Numbered from the stretch's first letter, positions 35,152 to 57,227 are shown. The stretch: 64,000 bases of DNA from Candidatus Yanofskybacteria bacterium (GCA_016181175.1 JACOZV010000001.1:75778-139777), one strand, 5' to 3'. The notes: a model not told the origin generated them from the letters alone. Numbers and translations: made by a program.

Positions 35152-35273
35152 TTTGAGCACAAGATTTTATTTGGCATCCGCATTGTGATGCGTGGCTGAC
35201 GGATATTAATTATTTGTTGTTTGCGCACTACATTTCGGAATCTAATTGACACTAGTGCTTAAAAGGTGCGGGG
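35152..35273 (+). repeat. Hairpin insertion in the 23S 5' domain, flanked by 13-bp inverted repeat CCCCGCACCTTTT / AAAAGGTGCGGGG (family B)
   Basis: Inserted between GAGGAAAATAAAACAAA and AACATTTCCTAAGTAGCGGCGAGCGAA; same IR termini as 57160..57227 and 42283..42458. Confidence 0.65.
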
Positions 35274-35799
35274 AACATTTCCTAAGTAGCGGCGAGCGAA
35301 AGGGAAACAGTCTAAACTCTTGTTTATTAAGTTTACTTAGTGAGTGGGAGTGTTGTAGGAAGGATTTTTTTCTAAACACTGGACATCTGCATATACTCTT
35401 GTGCGGATATCCAGGAAATTAGGATTGAGTTACAAAGTTAGATGTTAGCTGAACGGTCCTGGAAAGGCCGACCAAAGAGGGTGATAGTCCCGTAAACCAA
35501 AACCTCTAATCTCAATCAACCGAGCACATAACTTTTAGGAGTTATGAGCTCGGTTGGAAAATCCTCTCCTGAGTACCCATGGAGCAGACTATCCGTGGCG
35601 AAGCCGGGCCTACTACGGTCCAAGACTAAATACTTTTGGTGATCGATAGTGAACCAGTACCGTGAGGGAAAGGTGAAAAGAACCCCGGTTAGGGGAGTGA
35701 AATAGAACTGAAACCATATGCCTACAAAGAGCCGAAGCCCTTCCCGTCGCAAGACGGTCAGGGTGACGGTGTGCCTATTGAAGAATGATCCAACGAGTT

Positions 35800-36128
35800 T
35801 TTACAAGTGGTTTATCCAGCTTCACTTTTGGTTTATGATGACTTTATGTGGATAGTTTATATTATTCAGAACAATCTAACTGAAAAAATATATATTGGCT
35901 GTACAAATGATCTCAAGAAACGAGTCGAAAAGCATAACAGCCAAACAAATAAAGGTTATACAAGACGACTTATCGGTCAATGGATTTTGATATACGCGGA
36001 AGCTTATAGAAGCAAAGAAGATGCTTTTCGACGGGAGTCAAAACTCAAAGACCACGGTAGTTCTAAACATGAATTGAAGAAGAGAATCAGCAATTCATTG
36101 TTAAAACCAAAAGTGAGGCTGGATTAAG
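35800..36128 (+). mobile_element. Stem-bounded intervening sequence in the 23S helix-25 region carrying a GIY-YIG ORF
   Basis: 19-bp stem CCAGCTTCACTTTTGGTTT (35816-35834) / AAACCAAAAGTGAGGCTGG (36104-36122) enclosing the ORF; inserted between …GAATGATCCAACGAG and GGATAAGCCCGTATAGGG…GGAAACCGAGTG. Confidence 0.65.
35846..36127 (+). CDS. GIY-YIG nuclease-family protein (YhbQ/UPF0213-like) encoded inside the 23S IVS
   Basis: WIVYIIQNNLTEKIYIGCTNDLKKRVEKHN…YTRR…WILIYAEAYRSKEDAFRRESKLK is a GIY-YIG motif set; an alternative GTG start lies at 35807. Confidence 0.7.
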   Translation: MWIVYIIQNNLTEKIYIGCTNDLKKRVEKHNSQTNKGYTRRLIGQWILIYAEAYRSKEDAFRRESKLKDHGSSKHELKKRISNSLLKPKVRLD

Positions 36129-37305
36129 GATAAGCCCGTATAGGGTGCATCCGTAGGGAAACCGAGTGTTAAAAGCGCGACTTAATCGCTTGTAAAAGAC
36201 CCGAAGCCAGGTGAGCTACCCATGGCCAGGATGAAGTTTGTCGAAAGACAAATGGAGGTCCGAACTAGTTGATAGCGCAATATCATTGGATGAGCTGTGG
36301 GTCGGAGTGAAAAGCTTATCGAACCTGGTAATAGCTGGTTCTCCCCGAAATGCCTTTAGGGGCAGCGCCGGTGAGTAGTCGCGGGGGTAGAGCTCTGAAT
36401 GGTTTGCCGTGCCAGCAATGGTAGGCTTACCAAACAAACTACGAATACCGCGGTGTAATCGCCGGTAGTGAGACTGTGAGGGCAAAGCTTCATAGTCGCG
36501 ACGGGATTAGCCGTTTGACCACCGCTTAAGGTCCCTAAATCTATGCTAAGTGTTAAAGGAAGTCATTTTCCTTAGACAGGTAGGATGTTGGCTTAGAAGC
36601 AGCCATCATTTAAAAAGTGCGTAACAGCTTACTGCTCGAATTCTAATTTCGGTTAGACGAGGAAAGTGGCGCCGAAGATTCAACGGGGCTAAGCATAGTA
36701 CCGAATGCGTGGACCGTCCCGATTTATCGGGATGAGTGGTAGGGGAGCACTTCAAGCCGCTGCGAAGGTGTGTCGTGAGGCATGCTGGAGCGCTTGGAGG
36801 AGAGAATGTTGGAATGAGTAACCACAAGCGAGGTGAGAACCCTCGCCGCCGTAAGCCTAAGGTTTCCTCCGCAATGTCAATCACCGGAGGGTTAGGCGAC
36901 GCTAAGGATAACCGTGCCTACGGGCATGGGAAGCCGATGCTAAGCCGGTTAATATTCCGGCCCTTCCATATGTATTGATGGAGCGACGGAGGATATAAGC
37001 TGGAGCAGATTATTGGATTTCTGTTTTTGGATTCCAGGATTGTCGTTTGGAAAATCCGGCGACTGACTTTAATGTCAAAATACGAATTTGAAGAAATCAC
37101 GGGTAACCGTGGGATTCCAGTGAAGAGCCTTCCAAGAAAAACTTCTAAAATTATGCATATGGGAAACGTACTTAAAACCGACACAGGTGGGCTAGTGTAA
37201 GTGCACTAAGGCGAACGGGTGATTATTGGCTAAGGAACTCGGCAAAAAAGTGGCCGTACCTTCGGTATAAGGCCTACCTGACCGTGCCTCACTGCGTTCG
37301 GCACG

Positions 37306-37410
37306 AATTTTTAAATTTTTAATTTTATAATTTTAATAAATAATTTCTAATGTTTAAAAATTAAAAACATTAAGATTTATTTAAAAATTAAAAATTGGAA
37401 ATTAAAAATT
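37306..37410. repeat. AT-rich palindromic hairpin repeat (family A), full ORF-less copy inserted in a variable 23S helix near the helix-63 region
   Basis: AATTTTTAAATTTTTAATTTTATAATTTTAATAAATAATTTCTAATGTTTAAAAATTAAAAACATTAAGATTTATTTAAAAATTAAAAATTGGAAATTAAAAATT; arms are mutual reverse complements; central mini-hairpin TAATGTTT/AAACATTA; flanked by 23S exon sequence. Confidence 0.75.
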
Positions 37411-37632
37411 CTAACAAGCCGAGCATAGCGAGGCGCGGTTGGGTCGCAGCTAACGAACCCCTGGCGACTGTTTATCTAAAACACAACTCTGTGCTAAGCC
37501 GAAAGGCGCTGTATACAGGGTGACGCTTGTCCAGTGCTGGAACGTTAACGGTGGAGGTGGTATGCAGCAATGTGTATTGCCAACGCCCGAAGCGCCAGTG
37601 AACGACGGCGATAACTATAATCGTCCAAAGGT

Positions 37633-56106: not shown

Positions 56107-56134
56107 CCCATTTAATCTACTTTATTAATCCCGC

Positions 56135-56638
56135 CTAGATAACCATCGTAACCATTTCTTGTTCAAGTTGCTGTTTTTCCGCTTCGGTTTTTTCTTTGGC
56201 TGGTTTTTTGGCTATTTCCGCTGTGGCCGGTTCATGTGTTTTTATTCTTGGCCTGGATCGGTATTGTCCCAAAATTCTTAATTCCTTACCCTCGTCCGGC
56301 TTTTTAAGAAGCAGATATCTCAATATGCCGCCCTGCAATTTTATTTGAGAATTTATTTTTTCTATTGTTTCAGTCGGTGCTGAAAAATCCAATATGCCAA
56401 AGTTGGCATATTGTTTGTTTTTTATCATATATGACAGATGCACGCGTTGGGGAACTTTAGAAGTTAAAATTGAACCGCCGGCCTGTGTTACTAAGGCAGA
56501 AAGTTCCTGTGTTTGCGCCTTAATATCAATCTCTTCGAGATCAGGACCTAAGTGATAAGCAAGCTCATAGGTTTTCGGTTGTATATCAGCTTCCGTCATC
56601 TTGGGAAAAAGGTTAGCAGAATTTATCGTTAGAGTCAA
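56135..56638 (-). CDS. rpsF: 30S ribosomal protein S6 (rpsF-ssb-rpsR operon)
   Basis: …KTYELAYHLGPDLEE…QRVHLSYMIKNKQYANFGILDF… S6 fold; operon context; start codon uncertain (M1 or M14). Confidence 0.75.
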   Translation of the reverse strand: MTLTINSANLFPKMTEADIQPKTYELAYHLGPDLEEIDIKAQTQELSALVTQAGGSILTSKVPQRVHLSYMIKNKQYANFGILDFSAPTETIEKINSQIKLQGGILRYLLLKKPDEGKELRILGQYRSRPRIKTHEPATAEIAKKPAKEKTEAEKQQLEQEMVTMVI

Positions 56639-56692
56639 ATTTTTGCGGGGGTTGAATTAGTTTTGCTGGTTTGATATAAATAAAAGTAATGA

Positions 56693-56824
56693 ATCCCGAA
56701 CGAGACAGCCCTTGTCAACGGCATGGAAAGGTTGCGGCGGCTATCTAATTGGTGATTTATAAAGTTAATTTAAATAGACACGGAAATGATTTACTCAGAT
56801 AAAACATTTCCTGTCTCGTACGGG
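56693..56824 (+). promoter_or_regulatory. Leader of gene 56825: inverted partner ATCCCGAACGAGACAGC (56693-56709), hairpin GGAAATGATTTACTCAGATAAAACATTTCC, then CCTGTCTCGTACGGG-ATG
   Basis: Same module architecture as at rpoB, ssb and rplD. Confidence 0.5.
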
Positions 56825-57181
56825 ATGAATTTTAATCGATTAAAAGAATTAGTTGGTAAATTGGGCGGGCTTTTGGTGTTGGACGGTGATAAGCCTGAGT
56901 TGGTGGTATTGACATACAAAAAATATCAAGAAATTGAAACCGGAGAGGAAGTGGCCATTTCTAATCCTAATCGGAATGGAGCAGACGAAGGAAGTATTTT
57001 GAGCGGCGAAGGCGGCGAAGATGGTAGTGACGACGACAGAAAAACTCTTGATCAGTTAAACCAAGAGATACTTGCATTAAAAGAAGAGATAAGACAAAAA
57101 GAGGAGGCTGAATTGATTGGAAATGGACAAGTGACGGAACCGATAGCCGAAATTGTTGACCCCGCACCTTTTTTGGACTAG
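56825..57181 (+). CDS. Hypothetical protein with a Phd/YefM-antitoxin-like N-terminal fold and an acidic coiled-coil C-terminus
   Basis: MNFNRLKELVGKLGGLLVLDGDKPELVVLTYKKYQEIE resembles Phd/YefM; start set at the module ATG rather than the upstream in-frame extension MIYSDKTFPVSYG. Confidence 0.45.
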   Translation: MNFNRLKELVGKLGGLLVLDGDKPELVVLTYKKYQEIETGEEVAISNPNRNGADEGSILSGEGGEDGSDDDRKTLDQLNQEILALKEEIRQKEEAELIGNGQVTEPIAEIVDPAPFLD

Positions 57182-57227
57182 CGCTCCGCGCCAAAATTTA
57201 AAAAAGTTGTCCACAAAAGGTGCGGGG
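57160..57227 (+). repeat. Family-B hairpin (CCCCGCACCTTTTTT … AAAAGGTGCGGGG) overlapping the stop of the upstream gene and abutting the tuf promoter -35
   Basis: 13-bp inverted-repeat termini identical to the 23S insert at 35152..35273; interior begins TTGGACTAGCGC (compare TTGACACTAGTGC in the 23S copy). Confidence 0.6.

Follow-up and report, generated by a model that had tools for sequence, protein, structure and literature searches.

A probable family of small palindromic mobile elements in stable-RNA genes and promoters of Candidatus Yanofskybacteria and other bacteria

Intervening sequences interrupt the 23S rRNA genes of Salmonella, Leptospira and Coxiella, from whose transcripts they are excised by RNase III, and some of them encode an S23p/IVP protein. 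Elements of a second kind, exemplified by the Correia elements of Neisseria, the RPE of Rickettsia, ERIC and REPIN/REP, are small, non-coding, bounded by inverted repeats and flanked by target duplications, and lie between genes or at gene ends. According to passages of a survey of the Candidate Phyla Radiation (CPR), intervening sequences are distributed sporadically, which suggests horizontal spread, and the non-intron insertions of CPR rRNA genes include short unclassified insertions and GIY-YIG open reading frames (ORFs), mostly at the tops or bases of stem-loops (Tsurumaki et al., 2024; PMC11270868). Here we analyze a stretch of 64,000 nucleotides from Candidatus Yanofskybacteria bacterium (GCA_016181175.1, JACOZV010000001.1:75778-139777; hereafter the window), in which three hairpin elements, el1, el2 and el3, share inverted termini and occupy a 23S rRNA gene, a 5S rRNA gene and the promoter of tuf:

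35142-35273, plus strand: el1, a 132-nt hairpin element in 23S domain I, with TTTT-type arms and no target duplication
42283-42458, plus strand: el2, a 176-nt cassette with AAAA-type arms and a complete 5S gene inside
57160-57227, plus strand: el3, a 68-nt hairpin element with TTTT-type arms, in the -35 box of the tuf promoter

We read these elements as members of a family of small palindromic mobile DNA that has inverted ends of at least 13 bp (CCCCGCACC followed by four A/T positions) and two modes of insertion, and we give this reading a probability of about 0.65. Comparison with related genomes shows that el1, el2 and el3 were inserted as DNA; the target duplications and their consensus, the two classes of target, and the nesting and co-orientation of spare gene copies are shown by the sequences as well. 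In its traits the family is akin to intervening sequences, to palindromic miniature elements and to the vehicles of homing endonucleases, and fits none of them fully. The window has seven exact occurrences of CCCCGCACC or GGTGCGGGG, against a chance expectation of roughly 0.1-0.5 estimated at 42% GC, and six of them form the three inverted pairs that end these elements. All three elements have terminal inverted repeats of the kind that characterizes miniature palindromic elements, perfect over 19-22 nt. The preliminary description of this DNA had recognized the three hairpins and their shared ends and had rightly placed a complete 5S gene within el2; the inverted pair that it reported for el1 is also real, although its start at 35152 and length of 122 nt were 10 nt off. 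A supposed shared interior block, TTG(G)AC(AC)TAG(T/C)GC, had to be dropped, since it sets the right arm of el1 against the left arm of el3, at positions that are not equivalent. Folding, which had been suggested as a check, gave structures far more stable than shuffled controls for el1 (-64.5 kcal/mol on the rRNA strand, z -9.4), el3 (-42.8 kcal/mol, z -8.0) and the whole 5S region around el2 (z -12.2). The seventh occurrence, a GGTGCGGGG at 61873-61881 that lies within an rplB-like ORF (61220-62047) and has no partner arm, is probably coding sequence unrelated to the family.

The same termini recur widely. A scan of 185,579 species-representative genomes for the pattern CCCCGCACC-W4, 21-81 nt, W4-GGTGCGGGG found at least 120 loci, where about 2 would be expected by chance according to our estimate, and a scan for longer copies found at least 120 further loci in metagenomes, so that at least 240 elements are known in all. 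Counts of duplications, cargo and arms given below refer to the matches listed (126 short and 122 mid-size elements, or 263 copies). Hosts among the matches listed from the species-representative genomes comprise, within the CPR, Saccharibacteria, Falkow-, Moran-, Portnoy-, Kaiser-, Giovannoni- and Buchananbacteria and Paceibacterota, and, outside it, Planctomycetota, Omnitrophota, Elusimicrobia, Brevinematales and a few Gammaproteobacteria, including the complete chromosome of Methylotuvimicrobium sp. KM1. The window holds three copies, and one Falkowbacteria genome has four loci among the matches listed. Two scans of viral contigs, for short and for ORF-size elements, gave zero matches.

Nearly all of the 126 further short copies have an inverted repeat of at least 13 nt. 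The A/T runs of the two arms are mutually complementary, although the scan pattern left this free, and the stems often extend about 6 bp further inward with bases that are specific to the element yet complementary. The preliminary description had reckoned that chance palindromes would lack both further copies and a conserved interior. Further copies were found, and the interiors are indeed unrelated, even between copies of one genome; the family is real all the same, and a conserved interior was a badly chosen demand. Rfam searches of the window and 19 Planctomycetota loci returned no family for the elements and no ribozyme inside them. Correia elements, RPE, ERIC and REP are restricted to lineages and share interiors, whereas this family shares only termini of about 13 bp across phyla; unlike them, it also targets TTGACA with duplication of TTGA, carries RNA genes and has no RAYT. 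The literature offered no match: the passages of PMC11270868 retrieved by term search describe no CCCCGCACC termini, target duplications, insertions outside rRNA genes or nested 5S or tRNA genes; PMC3733652 contains no repeat matching this family; the passages on Patescibacteria tRNA introns that a term search reached in PMC13011429 mention neither hairpins nor nesting; and full-text searches for the 9-mers and for nested tRNA or 5S genes returned nothing relevant and no description of the family.

The first mode of insertion, mode A, is represented by el3, which, as had been noted before, overlaps the end of a gene and adjoins the -35 box of tuf. The flanking features are as follows:

57156-57159, plus strand: TTGA, left copy of the target duplication, from comparison with two other Yanofskybacteria (L258 and L259)
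57228-57256, plus strand: tuf promoter TTGACT-17-TATAAT (promoter scan, 11/12 positions), with the right TTGA copy (57228-57231) inside it

L258 and L259 keep the gene order (S18-SSB-S6, then ORF-tuf-S10) and read GAAACTGTTGACTTCGATTAGTCCTTGTTCTATAATGG, with a single TTGA and no el3, where the window reads GAAATTGTTGA-el3-TTGACTTTGATTAGGCCTTGTTCTATAATGG. Judged by this alignment, insertion of el3 duplicated TTGA and left the TTGACT-17-TATAAT promoter intact. ORF 56786-57181 now ends within the element, from which its last seven codons and its stop derive in place of the earlier codons, much as other palindromic miniature elements can remodel the 3′ ends of ORFs. No plus-strand intrinsic terminator was called at el3, where the A/T runs sit inside the stem. 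An element in L082 is placed likewise, before a 23S promoter.

Target duplication is a property of many copies. Exact 4-bp direct repeats surround 24 of the 126 short copies, as compared with 2 flanked by inverted repeats and about 0.5 expected by chance. Among mid-size elements, duplications occur at 34 of the 90 without an RNA gene and at 0 of the 32 that carry one. The logo of 62 non-redundant duplicated sites reads T-T-(G/T)-A followed by C-A, that is TTGACA, the C being somewhat inflated by the orientation step of the analysis. A TANNNT hexamer lies 16-18 nt downstream in 17 of 31 duplicated-site flanks, versus 1-10 (mean 4.5) at shifted offsets, and because of this excess we regard the targets as real promoters. 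A duplication of fixed length thus marks el3 and the family at large, not el1 or el2. Arm subtype follows the mode of insertion: duplicated copies mostly have TTTT arms, and RNA-carrying copies mostly AAAA or AATT arms.

The second mode, mode B, is seen most fully at el2, where one 5S gene lies inside another:

42161-42195, plus strand: 5′ fragment of the outer (resident) 5S gene; 42161-42192 align with positions 1-32 of the L261 5S gene at 100% identity
42271-42282, plus strand: loop-C remnant of the outer 5S gene, CATTCAGAC, and then junction TTG before el2, from comparison with L231, L166 and L261
42316-42433, plus strand: inner 5S rRNA gene, intact (Rfam 5S, 82 bits)
42459-42534, plus strand: 3′ fragment of the outer 5S gene, about 95% identical to the 5S gene of L261

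The closest relative, L261, whose neighboring protein is 93% identical, has a single uninterrupted 5S gene at the orthologous place. Positions 42459-42590 are about 95% identical to the 3′ part and flank of that gene, and the identity extends to the next ORF. The inner 5S gene, by contrast, is only 80% identical to the 5S gene of L261, as compared with 87% and 86% to those of two other Yanofskybacteria (L262 and L263). Where L261 reads CATTCCGAACTCGG, the loop-C junctions elsewhere are CATTCCGA-CTTG-element (L231) and CATTCCGAC-CTG-element (L166). Given that the site is uninterrupted in L261 and that the inner gene is nearer to other Yanofskybacteria, we conclude that a cassette with a foreign-type 5S gene was inserted into loop C of the resident 5S gene, after CCGA. 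Seven of the 122 mid-size metagenome elements carry a 5S gene, and outer 5S halves cut in loop C are recognizable around four of these (L231, L166, L206 and L209), so that the site after CCGA is occupied in these four and in the window. The arms are not conserved with the operon, as native processing stems would be: the 5S gene of L262 has no such arms, and that of L261 is uninterrupted. The outer 5S gene of the window also contains, upstream of el2, an extra 73-nt insertion (42193-42267) that is absent from the 5S gene of L261 and forms two small hairpins (TCCCGCC..GGCGGGA and CGATTTGC..GCAAATCG).

Nesting of this kind is more frequent for tRNA genes, which are carried by 25 of the 122 mid-size metagenome elements and represent twelve amino acids. 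Most elements that carry a tRNA or 5S gene lie co-oriented inside a gene of the same kind. When joined by hand, the flanks rebuild an outer tRNA, whose isotype agrees with that of the inner one in every case in which the anticodon is preserved; ARAGORN, run with its intron search, left the outer tRNAs uncalled. The junctions lie in the anticodon loop (about 10), in the T loop (about 7) or around position 23-26 (2). Homology between interior and flank occurs only in RNA-carrying elements and is co-oriented in 22 of 22. Between inner and outer tRNA copies the cores are nearly identical and the stems differ by compensatory changes, as in orthologues of different lineages. The anticodon loop of tRNA-Met is occupied in five loci (L245, L251, L185, L192 and L181), and non-complementary 4-mers, TTCA before the element and CAAG after it, recur at mode B junctions. 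Repeated occupancy of this loop and of 5S loop C may partly reflect common descent of some loci. Since no single excision rebuilds a canonical anticodon loop, function most likely resides in the inner tRNA genes and has been lost from the outer ones. Integrative elements directed at tRNA genes resemble these cassettes in inserting there and in preserving function by the tRNA sequence they bring; unlike them, the present elements nest a whole tRNA or 5S gene mid-gene in a loop, measure 130-190 nt and have no integrase.

In 23S rRNA genes the family resembles intervening sequences. At the position of el1, L262 has a 16-nt GNRA hairpin (AAAACAAA-TGCGCCGCAAGGCGCA-AACATACCC), and a Spechtbacterales 23S gene (L082) has an unrelated 56-nt hairpin. 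Because both carry other hairpins there, we conclude that el1 replaces a variable helix tip, as intervening sequences do, and it has their long end stem, of 19-22 bp. The opposite strand of el1 folds with -46.8 kcal/mol, so that the rRNA strand is better by 18 kcal/mol, and this modeled difference suggests that selection has acted on the RNA. The classic helix-25-like and helix-45-like sites are taken by other family members, two of which bracket a GIY-YIG ORF in the 23S gene of Methylotuvimicrobium. The likeness to intervening sequences extends to the end-paired hairpin that replaces a helix tip, to the sites, to the small ORF in some members and to a sporadic distribution suggestive of horizontal spread. 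The differences are that the termini of this family are conserved in base sequence across phyla, that it also inserts outside rRNA genes with duplications, that its ORF encodes a GIY-YIG protein, not S23p, and that el1 is not at a classic site. The window has a relative of its own at such a site:

35811-36127, plus strand: related element at a helix-25-like 23S site, with GIY-YIG ORF 35846-36127 (93 aa; Pfam GIY-YIG, E 1.1e-17) and drifted arms ATCCAGCTTCACTTTTGGTTT / AAACCAAAAGTGAGGCTGGAT

Clustering of ORFs within 2.5 kb of the elements at 120 loci returned an ORF of about 85 aa with a GIY-YIG domain as the sole recurrent partner, and no recurrent or classical transposase among these ORFs. 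Canonical CCCCGCACC arms exactly enclose a homologous ORF in L097/L123 and L112 and also at the L047 and P0096 loci, in units that measure about 300 bp. In L122 the GIY-YIG ORF lies between arms of a compensatory variant, CCCCTCACC/GGTGAGGGG, and compensatory or drifted arms surround that of L104, those of a Microgenomates cluster (TCCAGCACC) and an Omnitrophota cluster (CCCAGCCC), and that of the window at 35811-36127. Sampling from the protein side gave the same picture: four of four GIY-YIG clusters have such arms on both sides. The GIY-YIG ORF of L011 is flanked by a 21-nt direct repeat, which derives from the 5′ end of a tRNA-Thr gene. The ORF of L112 (4824-5075) is open throughout only with TGA read as Gly, from which we conclude that this host uses genetic code 25, of the Gracilibacteria/Absconditabacteria type. 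More than 5,700 proteins belong to this GIY-YIG family; among solved structures, the uncharacterized UPF0213 proteins 1zg2 and 1ywl are nearest to it, followed by I-TevI and SLX1. This link, like the outer 5S gene around el2, the target duplication at el3 and the spread across phyla, was absent from the preliminary description.

These observations suggest how the family might move and persist. In our reading, mode A is insertion with a 4-bp duplication at TT(G/T)A followed by C(A), the -35 hexamer of sigma-70-type promoters, and the promoter is kept. Mode B is insertion free of duplications into the hairpin loops of stable RNAs, namely loop C of 5S rRNA, the anticodon and T loops of tRNAs and helix tips of 23S rRNA. 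In tRNA and 5S genes the cassette brings a co-oriented, intact copy of the gene that it interrupts, resembling the orthologue of another lineage; because of this copy, function would be kept and the insert would be costly to lose. Where tRNA or 5S genes are single-copy, only insertions that bring the matching gene would survive. In 23S rRNA the element would behave as an intervening sequence or expansion hairpin. Our candidate for the mover, put forward with somewhat less than even confidence, is the arm-enclosed nuclease of about 85 aa, acting in cis or in trans: it might make a staggered cut at TTGA in mode A and, in mode B, initiate homing-type double-strand-break repair from the occupied allele. 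We further suggest, as a tentative idea, that the stem of 19-33 bp could allow RNase III or a similar enzyme to fold out or cut the insert from the transcript.

The proposed vehicle resembles those of the Seg proteins of T4 and of I-TevI in that it has a GIY-YIG catalytic core, that one site, 5S loop C, is occupied in different lineages, and that the ORF lies within a vehicle that could make the insertion harmless. It differs from them in that the protein has about 85 aa and no obvious DNA-binding domain, that the vehicle is a plain hairpin, not a ribozyme, and that rescue would come from a spare gene, not from splicing. Tentatively, the cassettes could form a previously undescribed class of selfish hairpin elements with ends conserved across phyla, which are moved by a minimal GIY-YIG nuclease and home to the loops of essential stable-RNA genes, with a sister subfamily at -35 boxes. 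Through the working spare copy that it brings (tRNA within tRNA, 5S within 5S), such a cassette would do no harm and at the same time could not be removed.

Several points weigh against the reading of a mobile family with two modes and a GIY-YIG mover. More than half of the copies (159 of 263) have neither a duplication nor RNA cargo, and el1 and el2 lack target duplications. None of el1, el2 and el3 contains a protein ORF, the GIY-YIG insert of the window has drifted arms, and no GIY-YIG remnants were detected in 169 ORF-less interiors, so that the ORF may be just another cargo. A GIY-YIG core of about 85 aa has no obvious DNA-binding domain and, to our knowledge, characterized GIY-YIG enzymes leave 2-nt overhangs, not 4-nt overhangs. 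Finally, the reading gives no account of how the gene that a cassette targets comes to lie inside it. Some of these points would suit an ordinary miniature inverted-repeat family that is moved in trans by a classical transposase and has the GIY-YIG ORF, tRNA and 5S genes as passengers. Terminal inverted repeats with a fixed 4-bp duplication at a defined target are a transposase signature, and ORF-less copies with unrelated interiors and no GIY-YIG remnants are what such a family would contain. We nevertheless consider this alternative unlikely, given that no transposase recurs near the 120 loci, where GIY-YIG is the sole recurrent small ORF, that all four sampled GIY-YIG clusters are arm-enclosed, and that it leaves the co-oriented, duplication-free RNA-carrying copies in genes of the same kind unaccounted for.

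The elements could instead be native to stable-RNA operons, their shared sequence being the recognition site of RNase III or Mini-III at processing stems, as the preliminary description had suggested beside its other proposal, a transposable hairpin. In favor of this, 5S and tRNA genes are surrounded by long helices that the arms close, the rRNA-sense strand of el1 folds much more stably than its complement, some family members are found where RNase III intervening sequences classically lie in 23S rRNA, and stems of 19-33 bp suit RNase III. The ACC/U preference of Mini-III matches the ACCU of TTTT-type arms, which is a lead only. In relatives, however, the 5S gene, the 23S site and the tuf promoter are without arms, which come by DNA insertion, 4-bp duplications at -35 boxes lie outside any stable RNA, and the arm-enclosed RNA genes are themselves nested in interrupted copies. 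We therefore regard processing as an improbable origin; it may be a property of the element. The proposal of a transposable hairpin, in turn, is borne out by hundreds of copies elsewhere, by the 4-bp target duplications and by the uninterrupted sites that relatives have for el1, el2 and el3. Even less probable are intron-like elements that are removed from the RNA with ligation of exons, leaving the outer tRNA or 5S functional. Insertions in anticodon loops, T loops and 5S loop C and perfectly paired outer acceptor stems would fit introns, but no Rfam ribozyme match lies inside the elements, inspection revealed no bulge-helix-bulge geometry, no single excision from ACU-UUCA-element-CAAG-UAA yields the tRNA-Met loop CUCAUAA, and with the inner copy intact there is no need for splicing. 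Chance GC-clamp palindromes or intrinsic terminators have a negligible probability: a minimal hairpin after tuf in L259 looks terminator-like, but seven exact 9-mers in 64 kb and hundreds of copies with complementary A/T runs refute this explanation, and no plus-strand terminator was called at el3.

Other known repeats were considered and rejected. Integron attC sites have the wrong termini, and an IS5 end has the wrong orientation. CRISPR repeats do not fit, because the present repeats are inverted and the loci mostly single; nor do invertible promoters, since no recombinase lies nearby and the same repeat occurs across phyla. REP/REPIN with RAYT was dismissed because the termini start with CCCC, have no GTAG/CGTC tag and have no such gene among their neighbors. 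Sequencing adaptors were also considered and dropped.

If spare-copy cassettes exist as proposed, they would add to self-splicing introns and inteins a third means by which homing elements neutralize their own insertion, and there is a substantial chance that they are a new kind of selfish element. The family gives a concrete origin to many non-intron insertions of CPR rRNA genes that had lacked an explanation, and the 13-bp signature makes the element traceable across phyla. Broken outer tRNA and 5S genes with foreign inner copies are also an annotation hazard: in metagenome-assembled genomes, counts of tRNA genes will be distorted by them, as will trees of 5S or tRNA sequences. Insertion at a -35 box that spares the promoter is an unusual choice of target and could have regulatory effects. 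Should GIY-YIG drive the movement, the family would represent a new strategy of selfish DNA, with a very small nuclease of practical interest.

A number of minor observations concern the family and its surroundings. A Planctomycetota subfamily (CCCCGCACCAATTG...CAATTGGTGCGGGG) comprises 26 loci (L006-L113), mostly of 79-83 nt, whose interior of about 53 nt is not self-complementary; these loci lack target duplications and match no Rfam family. In L065 (3908-4056), L037, L074 and L118 the arms are nested or in tandem, in the order L L R R or L R R, which suggests that elements insert into one another. The minimal hairpin of L259, CCCCGCACC-ACCGT-GGTGCGGGG at 3206-3240, directly 3′ of tuf, could belong to the family as a minimal member or be a terminator made of the same 9-mers. 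The window also has hairpins of a different, AT-rich family (AAATTTTTAATTTT...), at 37305-37411, 55449-55544 and 62391-62483. One of these lies in the 23S gene, where it immediately precedes the segment that, in alignments, neighbors the helix-45-like insertion site of other genomes, and the stem of el2 holds a run, AAAATTAAAAATTAAA, that resembles AAATTTTTAATTTT.

The genome of L262, a related Yanofskybacterium, has an insert of about 1.1 kb (12115-13248) between rodA and rpoC, which are neighbors in the window. The insert has inverted repeats of about 70 nt that resemble tRNA 3′ halves (GGGGTGCAAATCCCCGCACCTCCACC) and a 191-aa ORF, for which Pfam returned no match; ARAGORN called no tRNA in it. 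A Logan contig with the ORF and tuf (L001) opens with an inverted copy, about 100 nt long, of adjacent sequence (634-737, corresponding to 56055-56156 of the window), which is probably an assembly artifact. The 23S gene of the window, about 7 kb long, contains one group I intron above the Rfam threshold and two weaker intron matches (38760-38936, 39472-39753 and 40589-40770) as well as two LAGLIDADG ORFs (37832-38338 and 40994-41473), and model positions of about 120-215, in domain I, are largely unmatched in its Rfam alignment. Small rpoB and rpoC genes also lie in the window.

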